A stretch of 64,000 nucleotides of DNA, taken from the NCBI GenBank assembly GCA_009773155.1, contig WOVA01000016.1:25507-89506 (forward strand). The letters run 5' to 3'. The notes beneath the pieces were generated by a model that was given only the letters and a program-made list of their open reading frames with translations, searched no databases and had not been told where the DNA came from. Of this stretch, positions 29,486 through 52,720 are shown piece after piece. Every line of letters starts with the position of its first letter. Positions within the stretch are counted from its first letter, which is position 1. Position numbers and translations under genes: made by a program. This DNA comes from Elusimicrobiota bacterium (GTDB taxonomy: Bacteria > Elusimicrobiota > Elusimicrobia > Elusimicrobiales > UBA9959).

Positions 29486-29619
29486 CCGGGACCGAGGCCG
29501 GCGCTTTATCAGGGATTTCCCTTTTTAGTAACATTTGCGAAACACGCCGGGTGTAAATTATAGGCGCCGGTACTCCGCCCCGCCGGCGGCAAGGACGGGG
29601 CAGGTGCGGAAGAAAGCAA

Positions 29620-29642
29620 GGACACCATGCGGAATGGTGTCC
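29620..29642. repeat. GGACACC-family palindrome copy upstream of the giant coiled-coil gene
   Basis: ggacaccat-gcgga-atggtgtcc, about 40 nt before ATG 29682. Confidence 0.75.
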
Positions 29643-29681
29643 CCACCCGGCGGAACGATGTTTTTTTTACGGACTTTAACT

Positions 29682-32600
29682 ATGAACGACAAATGGGACG
29701 AATCTTCGCTTAACGAGCAGGCGATAACCGACCTGGAGACGGCCAAGCTCGCGCTGCGCTGGGCGCTGGACAAGCTCCGCGCCAACCAGGAAGAGTCGCT
29801 CAAATCCCGCCAGACGCTGCAGGAGAAAGCCTCGCAGGTCTCCTTCCTCGAGAACCAGGTCAAGGCCAAGAACGCCGAGATGGAGCGGCAGCAGCGCGCG
29901 CAGGAGGAGGAGATCAAGTCCCGCCAGGAGAGCCTGGAGTACCAGTTCAGGTCCCGCCTGGAGCGCCTGACCGAGCGCGAGAAGGAACTCGAGGATAACG
30001 CCGCGAAGCTGGAGGGCTCCTTCAAGGCCCGCGAGCAGAAGCTCACCGACGACTTCCAGAAAAAATCCGAGGAACTGCGCGGCCGCTGGGGCCAGGTGGA
30101 GGCCGAGATCTGGCAGCTGCGCCAGGAGCAGCTGGCCAAGCAGCAGGAGTTCGAGAAGCTTTACGCCGAGCGCCTCTCGGCCGAGCAGAAGCGCGCCCGG
30201 GAAGAGTCGGAGAACTCCCGCGCGGAGATGGAGAGAAATTACGGGTCCCGCGTGCAGGAGCTGGAGAAGCGCGAGCACACGCTGGGCGAGGAGCTCAAGA
30301 AACAGGAAGCGGTGATGAAGTGGGCCCGCGACAGCTGGCAGAAGGACGCCGACGAGCGGGAGAAGAAGCTCAAGGTCCGCGAGCTGGAGATAGAGAAGAA
30401 ACTGCTCGAGAAAGAGCAGGAGATAGACGATTACAAGGTCAAACTGGGCCTGCTCAACAAACAGCTGACCGACCTGCCCGAGGCCGTGCGCAAGCGCGAC
30501 GAGGAACTGGAGCGCTACCGCGGCGCGCTGGACAGCCTGGAAGGCGTGATCAGGACCCTGGAAGGGGAGAAGAGAGCCCTCGCCCAGGATTCCGATTCCA
30601 GGCAGTCCCGCCTGGCCGAGGCGCTCGAGGCCGAGAAGGCCCGTTTCAAGGACCTCGAGAACGAGATCCCCAGGCGCCTCAAGATAGCCATAGAGCACGA
30701 GCGCGCCCGGCTGCAGGAGAAGGTCTCCGAGGTGGAGAAGAACTTCGGCCTGGACCTGCGCAAGAAGCAGGAAGAGGCGGACTACCTCGAGCGCAATCTC
30801 AAAACTTTCGAGGAGACCATAAAGACCCTGCAGGCCGAGCGCGAAGGGTTCGCGCAGAAGACCGAGCAGCTGCAGACCCAGCTCAATATCCGCTCCGAGG
30901 AGACCTCCTTCCGCGAGCGGCAGCTGCAGTCGGAGTACGAGGTCCGCCTCAGGGTGGAGCTCGAGAAGCAGAGCCGCGGCCTGCGCTCGGAGATAGAGAC
31001 CGCGCAGCGCATCTACGAGGACAATCTGCGCCTCAAGATCGAGGAGATCGCCCACCTGCGCAAGGAGATGGAGACCCTGGCCGGCGAGAAGTCCGACCTG
31101 TCCTCCTCCTCCTCCGAGCTGCGCCGCCAGGTGGAGGCCCAGAAGGATAAGTACGAGCGCGACCTGGCCTCGACCAGGGCCGCCCTCAAGGAGAGCCACG
31201 ACGCCGAGCTGGGCCGCCGCATGGAGGAGGAAACGGCGAAGCACGAGCAGGCCCGCGCGGCGCTGCAGAAGGATTTTTCCGCCCAGCTGGAGGGCCTCAA
31301 CCTTATAGTCGCCGAGCGCGAGGCGGAGCTCAACCGGTTCAAGAACGAGGTCCAGCGGATGTCCGCCGAAAAGGCCGAGGCTATTGCGCGGGAGAAGGAC
31401 AAGGCGCGCCAGGACCTGGAGCTGCAGGCGAAGGCGTTCGCCGAGACCGAGAAGATATACCAGGAGAAGCTGCAGCAGTCCGCGCGCAATATCGAGGCCG
31501 TCCGCGTCGAGAAGGAAGAGACCATACTGCGCGAGAAGGACCGCCTCGAGCGTATCTACGCCGAGCGCGAGAAGGATTACGAGGATCAGCTGGCCCGCAG
31601 GGACCAGGAGGTCGTGCGGCTGCGCGAGGACCTGCTAAAGTCGGCCCATGAGCGGGAGACGGTTCTTCGCGAGGTTTCGGCGGAGCGCGACGCGCTGCGC
31701 CAGAAGCTCAGGGAAGCGCATGACGCCGCCGCCCGTGCGGAAGCGCTCAAAGAACTGGAACTGGAGCGCGCCCGCCAGGCCGAGAAGGACAAGTCGGCCG
31801 ACATCCTCGACAAGCGCGACAAGGAGCTGGCCGCGCTGGCAAGGACCAAGGACGAGCAGGACGCCGCCTACCGCCGCTCGCTGGAGGATTTCCGGGCCAG
31901 GCTCTCCGAAGCCGTGGGCAAGATGGAAGAGCTTAAGGCCGTGGCCGAGGAACGCCAGACCCGCGTCTCCGCGCTGCAGGTGGAGATCTCCGAGGCCAGG
32001 CGCCAGCATAACGACGAGCATATGGCGGTGTCCGGCCGGCTGGCCGACAGGGAAAAGCAGCTCAAGTCCCTGCGGATGGACTATGATTCGCTCAAGGCCA
32101 ATTCGGCGGCCGTCACCCAGGAGTCGCAGAAGCAGATTGGCGAGGCGCTGATGCGTCTCAAGGCCGCCGAAGAGCACCGCGGCGCTTCCGAGAAGGCTCT
32201 TTCCGAAAGCCGGCGCGAGATAGATATGCGCAGGGTAGAGCTTTCCAAGAAAGAGGACGAACTGCTAAAGCTGCACTCCGACCTGGAGAGCTCGCGCAAC
32301 TCCGCAGCCCGGACAGTGGAGGAATCGCGCGGCCGCGAAACTTCCCTCAAGAGCCGGCTGGAGGTGCTCGAGTCCGAGCTGGCCGGCCGCTCTTCGCTGG
32401 CGTCGGACCTTACCGCCGAGCTGAAAGCGCGCAACGCCGAGCTTTCAAAGGCGGGGGAAGAGAAGTCCCGCCTGGAGCAGGAGCTCAACGTCAGGCTCTC
32501 GGAATTCAAGCAGCAGCTTGAGTCGGAGCGCAAGGAGTTCCGCCTGTCCTACGAGCGGCTCAACCGCGAATTCGCCGACCGGGAAAAGGCCCTGATCGGG

Positions 32601-33413
32601 GAGGTCAACGCCCTCAGAGGCCAGTTGACTTCCGGCGAGTCACTGGCCCAGGACCTGAAGTCCCGGCTCGAGAGCGCGGAGGCGGCCGGGCCCGGGATGA
32701 AGGCGCGCATAGACGAACTGCAGAAGAAGATCAGGAACATGGAAGAGGCGTCCTCGGGCCTCGCCGAGAGCCTGCTGGCGGCCAAAGAGAGCGCCTCCGC
32801 CGCCGCGGCCCGGATAGAGAAGCTCTCCGCCCAACTGGAGGACGAGAAGAAGCGCCGCTCCTCGCTCGAAGCCGCCAACGAGACGCTCTCCTCGGAACTG
32901 CGCAGGAAACTCGAGGAGTTTTCGGCGGCCTCCTCGTCCGTCAAGGACCTTTCCGGCCGCCTGGCCCGGGCGCAGGAACTATGTGAGACGGAAAAGCGAA
33001 AGCGGGAGGAGACGGAAGTCTATTCCCAGACCTCCGCTTCCGCCCTCCAGGAGAAGGAAGTGGAACTGTCCGACCTGAAGTTCTCCATGAAGGAGCTGTC
33101 TTCCAGGGTCAATAAACTCCAGTCCCTCTACGAGGCCGAGAAGCTCAAGCGCGAGGAGACCGAGGTTTATTCCCAGACCTCGGCCAGCGCCCTGCGCGAG
33201 AAGGAAGACGAGCTCAAGGGCCTCGGGAAGCGCTGCGCGCGGCTGGAATCCGAACTCAACGCCTCCAGGAAAGAGGCGGGTTCCGCGTCGGTCGAGGCGG
33301 CCAGGCTGGCCGGCGAGATCGAGGAGCTCCGGCGCGTCAAGGAAGAGTACGAAAAGAGCCGCAGGCTGGCGGAAAAGCTCAAAGATAAGCTCAAGCTATG
33401 GAAGAAGGAATGA
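29682..33413 (+). CDS. Giant coiled-coil-rich protein (about 1240 aa), no enzymatic domain recognised
   Basis: Almost entirely E/K/R/Q/L/A heptad-like sequence with no TM or signal peptide. Start set at MNDKWDES (29682; ATG 29658 is also possible). The ORF-track TTG 29535 start would read through a palindrome repeat. A C-terminal duplicated block EK.KREETEVYSQTSASAL.EKE.EL is present. Confidence 0.8.
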   Translation: MNDKWDESSLNEQAITDLETAKLALRWALDKLRANQEESLKSRQTLQEKASQVSFLENQVKAKNAEMERQQRAQEEEIKSRQESLEYQFRSRLERLTEREKELEDNAAKLEGSFKAREQKLTDDFQKKSEELRGRWGQVEAEIWQLRQEQLAKQQEFEKLYAERLSAEQKRAREESENSRAEMERNYGSRVQELEKREHTLGEELKKQEAVMKWARDSWQKDADEREKKLKVRELEIEKKLLEKEQEIDDYKVKLGLLNKQLTDLPEAVRKRDEELERYRGALDSLEGVIRTLEGEKRALAQDSDSRQSRLAEALEAEKARFKDLENEIPRRLKIAIEHERARLQEKVSEVEKNFGLDLRKKQEEADYLERNLKTFEETIKTLQAEREGFAQKTEQLQTQLNIRSEETSFRERQLQSEYEVRLRVELEKQSRGLRSEIETAQRIYEDNLRLKIEEIAHLRKEMETLAGEKSDLSSSSSELRRQVEAQKDKYERDLASTRAALKESHDAELGRRMEEETAKHEQARAALQKDFSAQLEGLNLIVAEREAELNRFKNEVQRMSAEKAEAIAREKDKARQDLELQAKAFAETEKIYQEKLQQSARNIEAVRVEKEETILREKDRLERIYAEREKDYEDQLARRDQEVVRLREDLLKSAHERETVLREVSAERDALRQKLREAHDAAARAEALKELELERARQAEKDKSADILDKRDKELAALARTKDEQDAAYRRSLEDFRARLSEAVGKMEELKAVAEERQTRVSALQVEISEARRQHNDEHMAVSGRLADREKQLKSLRMDYDSLKANSAAVTQESQKQIGEALMRLKAAEEHRGASEKALSESRREIDMRRVELSKKEDELLKLHSDLESSRNSAARTVEESRGRETSLKSRLEVLESELAGRSSLASDLTAELKARNAELSKAGEEKSRLEQELNVRLSEFKQQLESERKEFRLSYERLNREFADREKALIGEVNALRGQLTSGESLAQDLKSRLESAEAAGPGMKARIDELQKKIRNMEEASSGLAESLLAAKESASAAAARIEKLSAQLEDEKKRRSSLEAANETLSSELRRKLEEFSAASSSVKDLSGRLARAQELCETEKRKREETEVYSQTSASALQEKEVELSDLKFSMKELSSRVNKLQSLYEAEKLKREETEVYSQTSASALREKEDELKGLGKRCARLESELNASRKEAGSASVEAARLAGEIEELRRVKEEYEKSRRLAEKLKDKLKLWKKE

Positions 33414-36049
33414 CCTCCTCCTCCGGACTGGAAGGCCTGGACGCCGAAATAGACCGCCTCCTGGAGGAAGTGCAATCCAAGGAGAAAGTTTATTCCGCGC
33501 GCGTAGCGCTGCTTGAAGGCGAGCTCAAGCGCCGCGACGGGGAGGTGCACACCCTCTCGGCCAGGCTGGCCGAGTCCGAGAAGACGTGGTTCGCGCGGGA
33601 GCGCGAGCTCAAGGAGAAAGGCCGCTCGCTGAAGGAGGTCCTTGCCGAGCGCGACGCGGCCGCCGCCGACCTTACCCTCAAGGCGGAGGAACTGACGAAG
33701 AAGATCGCCTCCCTCGAAAAGAGCCTGGAGAAGGAACTCACCGCCAACAGGGAGAAGGAAGTCTACATACAGAGCGCCAAGTCGGCGGTAAAGGGGCGCG
33801 ACGCCGAGGTGGAGAAGACCTGGCGTATGCTGGAGGAGGCCCGCTCCGAGATAGCCTCCTGGAAGGCGCAGACCTCCGAGCGCGACTCGCGCCTGGAGGC
33901 CGCCGCCGCCGGGAACCAGGCCCTCGCGCTGGAGATACAGAAGCTCAACAATTCGCTGCAGCAGGCGGCGCAGGGGTTCCGGCACAAGCTGGACATGGTA
34001 AGGAAGGAAGCCGAGTCCGCCGTGCTGGAGAAGTCCTCCGCGCTGGTCCGCGTCAGCGCGGCCGAGGAGGCCATGAATGAGCGGGCCGCCTCCATGGAGA
34101 AGCTGGCCGTCAGGGCCAGGCAGCTGGAAGAGACCCTCGCCGTGCGCGAATCCCGGCTGGCCGAGCTGGAGGACAGGCTTAAATTTTTCGAAACGGTCCC
34201 GCAGTCGGCGGAGAAGGCTTCCGCCGAGACCGCGGCGCTGCGCCGCAAGGAGCGTCTGGTCTCCGAACTGACGTCACGGGTGGCCTCGCTGGAGAAGGAC
34301 CTGACTTCCGTGGAGGAGGACCGGGCGCGGCTGGCCGAGCGCATGCACGTCTCCGAGGCGGAACTGCGCGCCGCCCGCGAGGAGCTGGCCGGCTCGACCG
34401 CCAGGTTAAGGGCGCTGGAGTCGGAGCGCGACTCGTTCAAGAAACTTTCGGCGGAGGCCCAGGAGATGGCCGCCGCCATCTCGGAGAAGTCCGGGCGCGA
34501 GGATACCGAGAAACTCTCTAAAATAGGCGAGAGCCTGCGCCAGGAGCACGTCCGCTACAGTCAGGCGCTCTCGCGGGCCGAGGAACTCGCCACCCGCTAC
34601 GCCGCGCTCGAGGCCGATCACGAGGCGCTGAAAAAACGCCACGACGATTCCGTGGCGGAGAAGGCGGTGGAGATAGAGAAGCTGCGCTCCGACCTGGCCC
34701 AGGCCGAAGCGGAAGGCGCCAGGCGCCTGTCCGAACTGGCCGAGACCGACCGCCGCCGCTACCACGAGCTCGCGGGCGAGATGCAGCAGCTCAGCTCCCG
34801 CCTCGCGGAGAAGGAGATGGAGCTGGAGGCCGCCCGCTCCGGCCACGAGGCCATAAAGGCCGAATGCGCCCGCCTGCGCGAGCACGAGCGCGAACTGCAT
34901 AAGAATTACGAGCGCCAGCTCAAGGACGACAACCGCCAGCTGGAGGAGGCCCGCGCGGCCGCCGCCAGGCTGGAGGGGGAAATGCACGCCATCCATTCCC
35001 GGGAGTCCGCCCTGAAGGCGGAGGCCGCGGCGCTGAAAGCCGAGATAGAGGTCTCCAAAAAAGAGAAGAACACGGCCGCTTCTTCCGGCAAAAAGCTCAG
35101 GGAGCTGGAGTCACGGCTGGAGGAAAAGAACGACGAACTGTCCGAGGCGCGCAAGAGCCTCTCCAAGATCTCGACGGAGAAGGCGCGCTGGCACGAGCGG
35201 GAGCGCAAGCTGGCGGAGGACGGCCGCGGCGGCAAGGCCAAAGCCGAACTGGCCGACGCCGAGCGCCGCCTGGCCGCCAAGGAGCAGGAACTGTCCGGGG
35301 TCTCCGACAGGCTGGAGGCCGCCGCCGCCGAGATCTCCGGCCTGCGCGCCGCGAGGGAGAGCTTCAGGAGCAGGCCCGCCCCGGGCGCCTCGACGGACCT
35401 GCAGGAGCTGGTCGCCGGCATCGCGCACCAGATCTCCAATTCCGTCAGCATAATACGCAGCCACGCCGAGTACTGCCTGGAGGCGCCTAAAGAGTCAGAT
35501 CTCAAAGAGCCGCTGGGCGCGATAGTGCGCAGCATAGTCACCCTGCAGAAGCGCATCGAGGAAATAGCCGACTTCTCCAGGCCCGTTCTGCTGCAGCGCA
35601 AGACCGTCGGGCTCGGCGACATAGCCAGGGAGGCCCTGGCCTTCGCCGCCAACGCGCAGGGGCAGGTCCCTTTCCAGTCCAGGGTCTCCGCCCCTAAAGA
35701 CCTTCCTCCGCTGCGCGTGGACCAGGTCCGCCTGCAGGAGGCCCTGGAGCATGTCCTGACCAACGCCGCCGAGTCGCTCGGCAAGGACGGGCGGATAGTG
35801 GTGGACATACGCCGTTCGTCGGGCGGCCAGGTCATAAAAGTGTCCGACACGGGACAGGGAGTAGAACCCAAGAACCTGCCGGCGGTCTTCGAACCTTTCT
35901 TTTCCACCAGGCCAGGCAAGCTGGGTCTGGGGCTGGCGATAGCCAAGAATATCATCAAGTCGCACGGCGGAGAGATCAAGCTCTCCAGCGAGTTCGGCCG
36001 CGGAACGCAGGCCGAGATCTTCCTCCCGGACGCTCCGGAAGAGGACTAA
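33398..36049 (+). CDS. Histidine kinase with about 620-aa N-terminal coiled coil
   Basis: Overlaps the previous gene (ATGA at 33410-33413). Long coiled coil, then H-box LVAGIAHQISNSVSII and an HATPase (LTNAAESL, SDTGQGV, GKLGLGLAIAKNII.HGG). No TM segment seen. Confidence 0.85.
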   Translation: MEEGMTSSSGLEGLDAEIDRLLEEVQSKEKVYSARVALLEGELKRRDGEVHTLSARLAESEKTWFARERELKEKGRSLKEVLAERDAAAADLTLKAEELTKKIASLEKSLEKELTANREKEVYIQSAKSAVKGRDAEVEKTWRMLEEARSEIASWKAQTSERDSRLEAAAAGNQALALEIQKLNNSLQQAAQGFRHKLDMVRKEAESAVLEKSSALVRVSAAEEAMNERAASMEKLAVRARQLEETLAVRESRLAELEDRLKFFETVPQSAEKASAETAALRRKERLVSELTSRVASLEKDLTSVEEDRARLAERMHVSEAELRAAREELAGSTARLRALESERDSFKKLSAEAQEMAAAISEKSGREDTEKLSKIGESLRQEHVRYSQALSRAEELATRYAALEADHEALKKRHDDSVAEKAVEIEKLRSDLAQAEAEGARRLSELAETDRRRYHELAGEMQQLSSRLAEKEMELEAARSGHEAIKAECARLREHERELHKNYERQLKDDNRQLEEARAAAARLEGEMHAIHSRESALKAEAAALKAEIEVSKKEKNTAASSGKKLRELESRLEEKNDELSEARKSLSKISTEKARWHERERKLAEDGRGGKAKAELADAERRLAAKEQELSGVSDRLEAAAAEISGLRAARESFRSRPAPGASTDLQELVAGIAHQISNSVSIIRSHAEYCLEAPKESDLKEPLGAIVRSIVTLQKRIEEIADFSRPVLLQRKTVGLGDIAREALAFAANAQGQVPFQSRVSAPKDLPPLRVDQVRLQEALEHVLTNAAESLGKDGRIVVDIRRSSGGQVIKVSDTGQGVEPKNLPAVFEPFFSTRPGKLGLGLAIAKNIIKSHGGEIKLSSEFGRGTQAEIFLPDAPEED

Positions 36050-50446: not shown

Positions 50447-50815
50447 ATGGCAAAGAAGTCCCGCAAGCGCGCCAAGGCCGCCCAGGAGAAGGGCGCCGCC
50501 GCGCGCGGCGCGTATTTAACCGGCACGCCCTTAGACGGTACGGGGACGCCATGCGGCAGGGTGTCCCCCGCCGATGCCGGGGGGGAGATAAGCGGCGCGG
50601 GCTGGCTGATAGTGGCCGTTTCGGTCATCACCGCCGTCGTCGGCTACTTCCTGCTCTCCAAAGCCGCTCCCGAAGGCCGCGACCTCTACTCCAATCTCTC
50701 TCCTTTCGTGATCCTGGCCGGCTATATAGGCGTAGCCGTGGGAATAATGTGGCCGGGACGGCGGGGGGAGGGGGAGGAATACCCTGCTTCCGCCGGCGAA
50801 AAGTTCCCGGCCTGA
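50447..50815 (+). CDS. Small hypothetical membrane protein (two TM helices) containing a palindrome-derived segment
   Basis: Basic N-terminus, then two TMs (GWLIVAVSVITAVVGYFLL, FVILAGYIGVAVGIMW). Residues DGTGTPCGRVSPADA are encoded by the repeat. Confidence 0.5.
   Translation: MAKKSRKRAKAAQEKGAAARGAYLTGTPLDGTGTPCGRVSPADAGGEISGAGWLIVAVSVITAVVGYFLLSKAAPEGRDLYSNLSPFVILAGYIGVAVGIMWPGRRGEGEEYPASAGEKFPA
50542..50568. repeat. Degenerate GGGGAC-family palindrome copy inside the small membrane-protein ORF
   Basis: ggggacgccatgcggcagggtgtcccc. By hand alignment, the extended unit 50533..50578 matches 48245..48290 at 39 of 46 positions. Confidence 0.65.
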
Positions 50816-50917
50816 TTTCACCCCTTTTTTTGCTTCTTTTCCCCTCTTTTTCATTAAAATTGCCGTAGCCGGTCTTTTCCGGATACCCTGAAAAGCGCCT
50901 TCCGGCTTTGCTCACAT

Positions 50918-51328
50918 ACCATGAAACCCCCGTGCCCGGGTCCGCCGGGCTTTCCGGGGCCTTTCATGGTATTTTTTTTCTCCTCCTAAATTCCGCCGTC
51001 CCGCCCCTGCCCCTGGTCTGGCCGCCTGTATTGCCTCCAGGGCCTTTCATGGTGTTTTCGATCGCGGTCTTTTTCGCCTCCCCCCGGCCCTCCCTTTGCC
51101 TGTTCGGCTTTCATGGTATTTTTAAACTTCCGGTTTTTCAGGCTGCTTCCGGGCTCTTTCCAGGGTCCTGGGCGGGCAGCTCTTTCATGGTATTTTCAGC
51201 CTGGCGGGGGGAGAGGGCCTATTCGGGCGTATAGGCCCCCCGGCCTTTCCAGGGTTTCCGGAAAGTTGGCAAGTTTTTGGCTTCTTTGGATCCGCGGCCC
51301 ATGAAAGCCGGGGGAGGTCTTTCATGGT
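50918..51328. repeat. Iteron-like array: 7 copies of CTTTCATGG(T) plus 2 CTTTCCAGGGT variants at irregular spacing
   Basis: Forward copies at 50961, 51044, 51108, 51182 and 51319. Reverse copies at 50918 and 51299. Variants at 51156 and 51245. The flanks favour GGCCTTTCATGGTATTTT. Confidence 0.8.
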
Positions 51329-51583
51329 TTTTTTGAAGTCGCGATTTTGAGCCTCCTGGCCGGATCTCTTGGTTTCAAGTTTTCAAAAAGTTGGCAACTT
51401 TTTTGGAAATTCCGCGGCCGGTCACCAGTAACCAGCTGGCAGGGCATATATAAGGAGACTGCTATTAATAAAAAACTATATTTTGTATTAGGGTTTCTCA
51501 AAAAAGCATTATAAAACAATGCTTTTCGTAAAAACATTAAAACCAATTATAACTTCACCCCAACCCCGCAAAGGGGATGTTCT

Positions 51584-51611
51584 AGTTAACATAATATATC
51601 TTATCGTAAGT
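51584..51611 (-). other. dif-like XerC/XerD recombination site candidate
   Basis: The minus strand reads ACTTACGATAA-GATATA-TTATGTTAACT. By hand alignment from memory, the XerD arm matches E. coli dif at 10/11 (TTATGTTAAAT), and the whole site matches B. subtilis dif (ACTTCCTAGAATATATATTATGTAAACT) at 23/28. It is embedded in an AT-rich tract. Confidence 0.6.
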
Positions 51612-51927
51612 TGGGGATAGGGGACGCTGATTACTAAATGACTAACCGGTATGTGGATCCGGAGCCTTGCGGATCGGCCTGTTCCCGGCTGTTTTGTTGG
51701 CTGGATGCGTCGGAGCCGCCGGAGCCCTTTCGGTCAGGCCGGGCGCAGTGCTCCCGGCACCGACTGCGGGCATTGCCGCCCTGTTCCGGGCTCGCGGCGG
51801 CTTGGTGGTATTTGGTTGCTGGCTTTTCCCCGGATCTCCGGGGCTTCTGGCGGGCTGTTTTTGGGCTTTCCGGGGTTCTTCCGGGGTCGTTCTGGTTGGC
51901 CCCGGGCCTGCTCTTTTTGGCCGATTC

Positions 51928-52431
51928 TCAGCCCTCGCTGTCGGCTATTTTCTTGAGCTTCATGGCCGCGCCCCAGGCCTTCTCCATGCCTCGCTGGGTT
52001 ATGGCGTAGGTCCGGCCGCGCTTGCTGCCGCTGGCCGTTATCAGGCCTTCTTTGATGTACCGGGCTATCAGCCTGTCCAGCCTGTCCGGGGCATAGCCGG
52101 AGGCTTTTATGGCCCTGGACAGGGTTATGGCTCCGGTCTCCTGCCTGCCTTCCAGCAGCCTGTAGGCGGCCGACAGGGCCAGGAAAGCCTCTTCCGGGGC
52201 TATCTCCGGGCTCTTGTTGCGCAGCTGCAGCAGGCCTGCCTTGGTCACGGTTATGGCCTGCCAGAGCCCCGGCTCCTGGCCGGGCTCCGCGGGCCTGGAC
52301 GCTGTCGTCCGGCCGGGGCCGGAAATCTCTTCAATAAAACCGCGCTTCTCGTTTATTATGAAATCCAGCGGGCCCTCGGCCTCGAATTCGGCGCCGGAAG
52401 GGTGTTTAATCCTGAGCTTATAGTTTTCCAT
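51928..52431 (-). CDS. Hypothetical protein with C-terminal winged-helix-like DNA-binding region
   Basis: 167 aa. The C-terminal RLDRLIARYIKEGLITASGSKRGRTYAITQRGMEKA resembles MarR/PadR-type wHTH recognition-helix-plus-wing patterns. It is the only credible ORF in the 50.8-52.7 kb island. Confidence 0.6.
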   Translation of the reverse strand: MENYKLRIKHPSGAEFEAEGPLDFIINEKRGFIEEISGPGRTTASRPAEPGQEPGLWQAITVTKAGLLQLRNKSPEIAPEEAFLALSAAYRLLEGRQETGAITLSRAIKASGYAPDRLDRLIARYIKEGLITASGSKRGRTYAITQRGMEKAWGAAMKLKKIADSEG

Positions 52432-52479
52432 AGTATTTCCCTGCCAGTTCTTAGCTTCTTAACAGTCACCTATGTCATT

Positions 52480-52508
52480 ATTCTATCTTATGCGTTGTTA
52501 TATGTCAA
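52480..52508 (-). promoter_or_regulatory. Sigma-70-type promoter for the wHTH gene
   Basis: The minus strand reads TTGACA, a 17-nt spacer, then TAGAAT. A second TTGACATAT box and the inverted repeat CATATGGC-N12-GCCATAT lie just upstream (52509-52545). Confidence 0.55.
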
Positions 52509-52720
52509 TATATGGCAGACACATGACGGCCATATGTCAACAGGTTGTGGATAGCTTTGGGGATATCCCGGGTCACGGGGCGGTTCTCATTGGGAAAAAG
52601 TGGGTATCCGGGGGGCGTCGGAGGCGTCTCCGGGTGCCTGATATGCACAGGAATCGGGCTGTATTTTGGGCTCCCGGGGGCGGGAGGCCTGTGTGACCTG
52701 GGTTACAGGGGCCGGAAGGG

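Follow-up and report, generated by a model that had tools for sequence, protein, structure and literature searches.

In bacteria of the order Elusimicrobiales, the chromosomal dif site is accompanied by an array of 16-bp boxes that are conserved across the order, confined to the vicinity of dif, set in one orientation, spaced by whole turns of the DNA helix and rigidly positioned relative to dif. We found this array by following up a stretch of 64,000 nucleotides from an Elusimicrobiota bacterium (contig WOVA01000016.1, positions 25,507 to 89,506; hereafter the window). The boxes are one component of a conserved non-coding architecture of ~1.6 kb around dif, which also includes two palindromes and an AT-rich block. 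From the sequence patterns, we lean towards the view that they serve as a DNA-level nucleoprotein scaffold that is functionally coupled to dif.

A family of boxes confined to the dif region

We collected 68 loci with the neighbouring gene for a PD40/peptidase protein of 877 amino acids, nearly all of them from Elusimicrobia metagenome-assembled genomes (28-90% identity). The figures given for the family rest on the window and the related loci having dif, about 43 in total. In the window, dif (51584..51611, + strand) is made of AGTTAACATAA (XerD-like arm), TATATC (central region) and TTATCGTAAGT (XerC-like arm). This 28-mer is present in the window and in 42 loci, always in the same orientation and context and as a single copy per locus, usually ~2.2-2.6 kb downstream of the 877-amino-acid gene (nearer or farther in a few loci). 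It thus has the attributes of a chromosomal dif: a 28-bp site with two 11-bp arms and a 6-bp centre, a single copy and genes that converge on it. It is identical to the dif of Bacillus subtilis at 23 of the 28 positions, and the left arm AGTTAACATAA matches the XerD arm of the dif of Escherichia coli and B. subtilis. A GGGGAT element directly precedes dif in the 43-locus alignment. No Xer gene was found in the window or the loci by tblastn with an E. coli XerD sequence as query. For the phylum, Kono et al. gave one Elusimicrobia dif, by prediction only.

A matrix built from the loci describes the 16-bp box, GCtCTTCATGGTrTTTT (cut-off of 12 bits). From -1200 to +900 relative to dif (89 kb in total) it matches 207 times in the forward and twice in the reverse orientation, counts that are partly circular because the matrix was derived from the same sites. 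Elsewhere (772 kb) there are 0 forward matches and 6 reverse ones, which are weak and at inconsistent positions, and this absence is an independent result. The motif, which the preliminary description of this DNA presented as a feature of one tract beside a dif-like site, is thus not common in these genomes. The distribution differs from that of KOPS or SRS motifs, whose genome-wide skew inverts at dif: the 772 kb outside the dif region have no forward match, and boxes to the left and to the right of dif point the same way.

The array is made of five to seven boxes in one orientation. They recur at offsets of ~-262, -400 to -410, -475 to -484, -536 to -556, -600 to -631 and -690 from dif, and they do so in genomes where the GC content of the tract between the flanking genes ranges from 39% to ~60%. 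In most of the 43 loci, the strong box closest to dif lies at -260 to -264. Weaker boxes follow on the right side of dif, in many loci at +55/56, and share the orientation of those on the left; in ~10 loci beyond the window and its close relatives L002 and L003, a box lies within the linker codons of the winged-helix gene that follows dif, in a reading frame that varies. In close relatives the boxes are invariant and the spacers variable. One conserved box position reads GATGG, without ATG, in the 43-locus alignment.

On scanning metagenomes for pairs of boxes separated by 40-70 bp we obtained 13 contigs, 10 of which have the dif 28-mer ~0.5 kb downstream in the same orientation. The off-target contigs L074:764-905 and L073:1-140 have the box sequence in AT-rich, apparently unrelated organisms; one carries a 21-bp tandem repeat TTTCTTCATGGTGTTTTTGCC (~7 copies) and the other an 80-bp direct repeat beginning GGCTTCATGGTATTTTTAGAG. 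The most divergent locus that still has dif (L057:3780-4400) shows a variant repeat, (A/C/T)TGGGTTTT, in place of CATGGTATTTT at comparable positions. Judged by eye, the box has no likeness to the sites of IHF or DnaA, to parS, matS or the Noc binding site (NBS), or to the arms of dif. We also considered TGGTATTTT as an extended -10 promoter and discarded this reading, given the A/G variation at the key second position and the absence of a promoter-like site in the tract.

Boxes are spaced by whole helical turns

The distances between neighbouring boxes follow the helical repeat of DNA. Among these related loci, 102 of 105 distances fit a period of 10.5 bp to within 2 bp, whereas 12 of 105 do so when the period is set to 10.0 and 20 of 105 when it is set to 11.0. 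The same is true when distinct distance values are considered (27 of 29 fit 10.5; binomial p ~2e-7). These distances form 11 classes: 53-54, 61-65, 72-74, 83-85, 91-95, 102-106, 114, 125-126, 135-137, 146-148 and 156 bp. Where spacing varies between lineages, the difference is close to one helical turn (63, 74 and 84 bp; 137 and 147 bp). Whole-turn spacing puts every box on one face of B-DNA, which is the pattern expected of cooperative protein binding with wrapping or looping. We found in the spacers no short tandem unit that slippage could turn into such a spacing pattern, and no signal of T-tract periodicity or intrinsic curvature.

The array in the window

In the window, CTTTCATGGT has five exact copies on the + strand (50961, 51044, 51108, 51182 and 51319) and two with one mismatch on the - strand (50918 and 51298); one further mismatched copy lies elsewhere in the 64 kb. 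These 8 matches compare with 1.8 expected, and 0 of 100 shuffles reached 8. The 8-mer TTTCATGG gives a similar picture, since 7 of its 9 matches in the window are inside 50919-51327 (1.1 expected). The array of forward and reverse copies that was first noticed in the letters is therefore real.

All five forward boxes are on the + strand; their offsets are those of the ATGGT core relative to the dif reference base 51588. Box 1 (CCTTTCATGGTATTTT, 50960..50975) is at -622, scores 26.4 bits and is invariant in close relatives. Box 2 (CCTTTCATGGTGTTTT, 51043..51058; -539; 25.9 bits) lies 83 bp (7.9 turns) past it, box 3 (GCTTTCATGGTATTTT, 51107..51122; -475; 25.1 bits) another 64 bp (6.1 turns) on, and box 4 (TCTTTCATGGTATTTT, 51181..51196; -401; 23.4 bits) 74 bp (7.0 turns) past box 3. 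Box 5 (TCTTTCATGGTTTTTT, 51318..51333), at -264 or ~25 helical turns from dif, has the best conserved position of the family. The forward copies are thus 83, 64, 74 and 137 bp apart, start to start, which replaces the irregular spacing of 24-83 bp given earlier.

Two variants and two reverse copies had been counted with the array. Both variants are present, and they differ in their phase. The degenerate box CTTTCCAGGGT at 51245..51255 (+ strand) is in phase by coordinate arithmetic (63 bp past box 4 and 74 bp before box 5), and locus L023 has a scoring box at -344, an offset matching that of this degenerate box. The CTTTCCAGGGT variant at 51156..51166 (+ strand) is out of phase, being 48 and 26 bp from its neighbours, and is probably not a member of the family. 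The two reverse copies also exist and are retained in close relatives, but neither has the T-run, and both stay under 12 bits with the family matrix. The one at the left edge of the array (50916..50928, - strand; ATACCATGAAACC on the + strand) is invariant in L002, L003 and L011, and a similar reverse copy is found at the left edge of the L059 array; its standing as a true site is uncertain. The other (CCCATGAAAG, 51298..51307, - strand) occurs in close relatives only, is absent from the 43-locus consensus and probably does not belong to the family. A degenerate copy of the box also lies over the start codon of the winged-helix gene (TTTTCCATAGTATTTC, 52424..52439, + strand), and the same position scores 18.8 bits in L002 and L003 (GTTTTCCATGGTATTTTT).

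Palindromes and AT-rich elements beside dif

The array is accompanied by a palindrome, AAAGTTGNCAACTTT (AAAGTTG-N-CAACTTT, 15-17 bp), that occupies two fixed offsets from dif, -313 (or -326) and -199, and varies by only 1-3 bp inside each offset class. Over all loci, 36 of 42 palindrome matches are within 700 bp to the left of dif. The first copy in the window (AAAGTTG-G-CAAGTTT, 51262..51276) is at -326, where the family has -312 to -314 (or -326); the second (AAAGTTG-G-CAACTTT, 51387..51401) is perfect and is at -201, within the family range of -198 to -201. Since the offsets of the nearest box and of the palindromes are nearly fixed, the 330 bp beside dif have kept their length across the order. 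A sigma-54 promoter made of GTTGGCAAGTTTTTGGC and the CTGCTA block was considered and rejected, because the GG-N10-GC spacing is not conserved over the loci, the window included; the GTTGGCAAGTTTTTGGC element is better described as the palindrome AAAGTTG-N-CAACTTT.

The AT-rich segment that had been noticed next to the array is real, and dif lies within it. It includes a conserved AT-rich block on the + strand (CTGCTAnTnATAAAAAnCTATAAAnnGTrTTAG, 51459..51492), with a degenerate box core near -113, and an imperfect AT-rich palindrome (AAAAGCATT-N7-AATGCTTTT, 51502..51526). In the latter, 71% of cells pair (~40% with the partner slid), so that by pair counts it is a real inverted repeat, with weak covariation. 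RNAalifold gave no consensus structure for it, and with the covariation this weak we rejected an RNA hairpin or terminator at this position. Another inverted repeat, GGGCCTAT-N8-ATAGGCCC at 51215-51238, has G and C runs on either side, and in close relatives its stem is retained and its loop variable; it overlaps a weak, non-significant Rfam match. With Rfam 15, only tRNAs reached the gathering score, and the best E-value in 50700-52000 was 0.58. A search of the tract gave no sigma-70-like promoter and no terminator.

A winged-helix protein encoded next to dif

The gene that follows dif encodes a conserved protein of 167 amino acids (51928..52431, - strand), with an N-terminal beta-beta-alpha domain, a disordered linker, a C-terminal winged helix and a long C-terminal helix. 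It is identical to "hypothetical protein FD189_1025 [Elusimicrobia bacterium]" and has no match among the families of Pfam or NCBIfam. Among 5.8 billion proteins searched there were 228 relatives, and the few that are named are nearly all labelled Elusimicrobia; a profile search gave 645 cluster representatives, in which the length of the linker is very different. The AlphaFold model (pLDDT 75.5) has a small N-terminal domain with an invariant acidic motif, SGAEFEAEG. Searches of solved structures by sequence and by fold listed generic winged-helix regulators only; the best matches are of the MarR, PadR, F-93 and Sso10a types, all weak (E ~2e-3), and no entry of Tus, RTP or MatP is among the matches listed.

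Conservation is strong upstream of this gene. Its promoter (TTGACA-17-TAGAAT; 52478..52545, - strand) is overlapped by four or five TGMCATAT repeats ~11 bp apart. Repeats of the same type are found upstream of distant homologues (L070:2128-2200; L069:2371-2388), which suggests that they are the own operator of this protein family. We looked for a likeness between these repeats (ATATGKCA on the + strand) and the box core CATGGTA, but only ATGGYA is shared, which is too weak. The DNA-reading residues of the protein are unchanged between lineages whose arrays differ, so it more probably reads TGACATAT than the 16-bp box. It is nevertheless a candidate component of the complex formed on the array.

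Upstream of the promoter, ~0.95 kb from dif, are DnaA-box-like elements (CTATCCACA and ATATCCCCA; 52546..52566, - strand). Two or three such elements (consensus TTATCCACA-GG-TTATCAACA) are present at this position in 38 loci. Their matches are ~18-fold enriched here (63 in 28 kb, compared with 102 in 833 kb); 61 of the 63 are oriented like the winged-helix gene. DnaA boxes at this promoter link the locus to the replication cycle.

Part of this organisation is seen in distant homologues. The gene of P0145 (323 amino acids) lies ~770 bp from a dif-like site, ACTTTACATAATAAAAATTATCGTTAGTT (L070:3206-3981, and the same in L071), and its promoter has a DnaA box and TGACATAT repeats, as in the window. 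Between this gene and the dif-like site there are ~10 copies of another short repeat, ACGAAGAG, which lack whole-turn spacing. A homologue of 174 amino acids (29% identity) is encoded in L069:221-7898 amid genes for an ERF recombinase, an S24 repressor-like protein, a TIR-domain protein and a DnaA_C-domain protein, a prophage-like context; it has a similar GACATAT element upstream.

The locus is conserved across the order

From left to right, the locus consists of the PD40-protein gene, a HEAT gene, a small membrane-protein gene, the box array, the two palindromes, the AT-rich block, dif and the winged-helix gene. By tblastn the neighbourhood is syntenic across the loci, with the first three genes on the + strand and three others, the winged-helix gene and two porin-like ones, on the - strand. 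The ~43 genomes that share this layout range in GC content from 39 to 65%. This order is retained on both sides of dif in ~43 loci, and the flanking proteins are ~50% identical across the order. In the window, the stop codon of the small membrane-protein gene is at 50815 and that of the winged-helix gene at 51928. The gap between them (50816-51927) is therefore ~1.1 kb long, and not the 0.8 kb first attributed to it, and its only open reading frames (ORFs) are short and mutually overlapping.

On a larger scale, + strand genes from ~20.5 to 50.8 kb and - strand genes from 51.9 to 63 kb of the window converge on dif, which fits a replication terminus. The coding strand is slightly C-rich whichever strand holds the gene, so GC skew is uninformative on origin versus terminus. 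The window also has ftsA and ftsZ ~10 kb away, and two large adjoining + strand genes (29535-36049; 1292 and 883 amino acids) with an A-over-T skew of +0.27 to +0.31, which is unusually strong relative to the rest of the window.

Some loci depart from this layout. In L013 (14540-19459) and L021, nrdR-nrdD-nrdG-dut are inserted to the left of the array, after the small membrane-protein gene, and the array remains with dif (the inserted nrdG gene of L013 is nrdG-like). In L011, a relative with 90% identity, the tract follows that of the window through box 4 and the first palindrome and then gives way abruptly, from ~14575, to GC-rich sequence unrelated to it; an insertion, a rearrangement or a chimeric assembly could account for the switch. 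In L059:13580-14220 the array, the AT-rich block and the winged-helix gene are present, and at the position of dif the family sequence continues only up to TAAGTT; no dif was found in this locus of 18 kb.

What the array might do

We infer from these patterns that the boxes are bound by protein, which protein may bind them and that binding affects Xer recombination or the terminus. A possible sequence of events is as follows. A sequence-specific protein would bind the boxes cooperatively on one helical face over ~430 bp, and would wrap or loop the left flank of dif. Further factors would bind the two palindromes and the AT-rich block. The fixed distance of 25 turns would then give the nucleoprotein structure a defined geometric relation to dif, on its XerD-like side, and the resulting structure would control events there: the assembly, directionality or timing of Xer recombination, or the marking of the terminus. 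Control of Xer recombination seems to us the most economical of these functions; it would operate much as the accessory DNA of cer and psi or the accessory repeats of TnpI do. It is tempting to go further and propose, tentatively, an undescribed terminus system of Elusimicrobiales, in which the phased array, the palindromic operators and a winged-helix adaptor under DnaA control would build a fixed structure on the XerD side of dif and govern dimer resolution or termination in a manner unlike FtsK-KOPS, PepA-ArgR, Tus or RTP.

Several points weigh against the scaffold. The 102 phased distances are not independent events, because the loci are related. We place the terminus at this locus from dif and gene orientation only. 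The case for the winged-helix protein as the reader of the boxes is weak, and no usable covariation was found between its recognition helix and the box variants, including TGGGTTTT of L057. Finally, the accessory DNA of the plasmid sites cer and psi extends over ~180 bp on the XerC side, whereas the Elusimicrobiales array extends over ~650 bp on the XerD-like side.

The boxes could instead be a polar barrier to replication forks, as in Tus-Ter or RTP-Ter, where asymmetric boxes and a protein encoded at the terminus stop forks from one direction and bring termination to the side of dif. The strict single orientation of the boxes, their position where genes converge on dif and the DnaA boxes at the winged-helix promoter would all suit a barrier. 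So would a small DNA-binding protein encoded next door with a copy of the box at or in its own gene, which is how TerB stands to tus and TerI to rtp. A barrier would not need helical phasing or a fixed distance of 25 turns to dif, and it is hard to reconcile with boxes of the same orientation on both sides of dif and with the lack of an opposed second group within ~10 kb, where only the 6 weak and inconsistently placed reverse matches are available. The protein model, which resembles MarR, PadR and F-93, with neither RTP nor Tus among its 50 listed matches, points away from it too. We regard a fork barrier as unlikely.

We give no better chances to a tether of the terminus or a centromere-like cluster, in which dense sites would nucleate a complex that anchors the terminus where the cell divides or arranges its segregation, in the manner of MatP-matS, ZapT or ParR-parC. 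Phased direct repeats beside a small autoregulated DNA-binding protein resemble ParR-parC, and a winged-helix protein with an invariant acidic N-terminal domain on a flexible linker is adaptor-like; ftsA and ftsZ are also close by in the window. A rigid distance to dif is not expected of a tether, though, and the flanking genes that were examined gave no recognisable partner NTPase or Zap-like gene. The matS sites are many and dispersed, whereas the array is a single cluster of 0.6 kb. The binding sites of ZapT are dispersed as well (PMC7188993).

A long non-coding RNA, for example a protein sponge with repeated CUUCAUGGUAUUUU or AAAAUACCAUGAAG motifs, would be compatible with a conserved tract that lacks ORFs and differs between its strands (the + strand being T-rich), and with an AT-rich palindrome before dif that might be a terminator, but spacing quantised in units of 10.5 bp is meaningless for RNA or coding sequence. 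Moreover, boxes are also found beyond dif, within the coding region of an oppositely oriented gene, and, as described above, the tract has no Rfam family, no sigma-70-like promoter or terminator and no RNAalifold structure for the palindrome. Such an RNA is very improbable.

An origin as iterons of plasmid or phage type, or as the remnant of a dif-integrated element (IMEX), two of the readings in the preliminary description, is slightly less probable still. The likeness to iteron replicons is one of form: phased direct repeats, an AT-rich block, DnaA boxes within 1 kb and a winged-helix gene, to which one may add the single distant homologue in a prophage-like context. The array is chromosomal and syntenic, its flanks on both sides are core genes conserved across the order, and these genes converge rather than diverge. 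There is one dif per locus and no empty site was seen: wherever the contig extends far enough, it has the array and both flanks. The winged-helix protein has a single such domain and not two, no Rep family match or Rep-like gene was found, and no viral contig carries the array.

The same description had noted that the motifs could start tiny peptides on the - strand. Each forward box does read AAAAYACC-ATG-AAR there, followed by an open frame of 16-46 codons, but as a function this is hardly credible, because the peptides share nothing beyond Met-Lys, one conserved box position is GATGG without ATG, spacer lengths change in steps of 10-11 bp and not in multiples of 3, and the same box falls in different reading frames inside the winged-helix gene.

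The scaffold coupled to dif thus remains the reading we favour, and it leads to simple predictions: under the phasing rule, adding half a helical turn would break function and adding a full turn would not. The parts are at hand, namely a 16-bp box, a 15-bp palindrome and a protein of 167 amino acids. Should the array control Xer recombination or termination, it would represent a new answer, from a phylum that has been little studied, to the universal problem of how replication is ended and chromosome dimers are resolved. Our full-text searches of the literature found no account of accessory arrays at chromosomal dif in Elusimicrobia, nor of the winged-helix family.

Comparison with known systems

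The best fit among the four readings of the preliminary description is that of accessory sites at an Xer site, exemplified by cer (ColE1) and psi (pSC101) with PepA and ArgR or ArcA. In these systems, as here, non-coding DNA directly flanks the Xer core, its geometry matters and it is thought to wrap round proteins as a means of controlling recombination. The fixed, helically phased positions of the boxes relative to a conserved dif in ~43 genomes agree with this idea, as does the fixed distance to the Xer core that they share with cer and psi (nearest strong box at -260 to -264 in most loci). The agreement does not extend to side, length and repeat design: cer and psi are plasmid sites and not arrays of a single box, whereas the Elusimicrobiales site is chromosomal and has 5-7 copies of a 16-bp box and two palindromes.

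The accessory repeats of the internal resolution site of Tn4430 are said to carry the recombinase's own recognition motif, in a site that totals 116 bp; the boxes, unlike these repeats, do not resemble the arms of dif. The resemblance lies in the layout, since that site (TnpI core, DR1 and DR2; PMC2847244) has accessory repeats on one side and in the same orientation beside a tyrosine-recombinase core, on which they impose directionality. Given these differences in side, length and repeat design, the array is not a member of the cer/psi or TnpI families.

The terminus-specific DNA-binding proteins MatP of enterobacteria and ZapT of Caulobacter (PMC7188993) offer a parallel in their adaptor design, but matS and ZapT sites are dispersed over hundreds of kb, whereas the Elusimicrobiales array is single, compact and at a fixed distance from dif. 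ParR-parC centromeres and the iterons of theta plasmids also have direct repeats on one helical face, near a small DNA-binding protein with repeats in its own expression region. The array differs from them in being chromosomal, at the terminus and coupled to dif, with neither a partition NTPase nor a Rep initiator. With Tus-Ter of E. coli and RTP-Ter of B. subtilis it shares asymmetric, orientation-strict sites at the terminus and a gene for a small DNA-binding protein beside a site that touches the gene; it differs in that there are no opposed groups, the sites are clustered and helically phased, and the protein model has no specific likeness to Tus or RTP. Chromosomal dif is generally described as a bare 28-bp site under the control of FtsK, and accessory DNA is regarded as a feature of plasmids. 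Here, across a whole order, dif is embedded in accessory DNA that is rigidly laid out in whole turns, and is conserved together with a DNA-binding protein that has DnaA boxes at its promoter.

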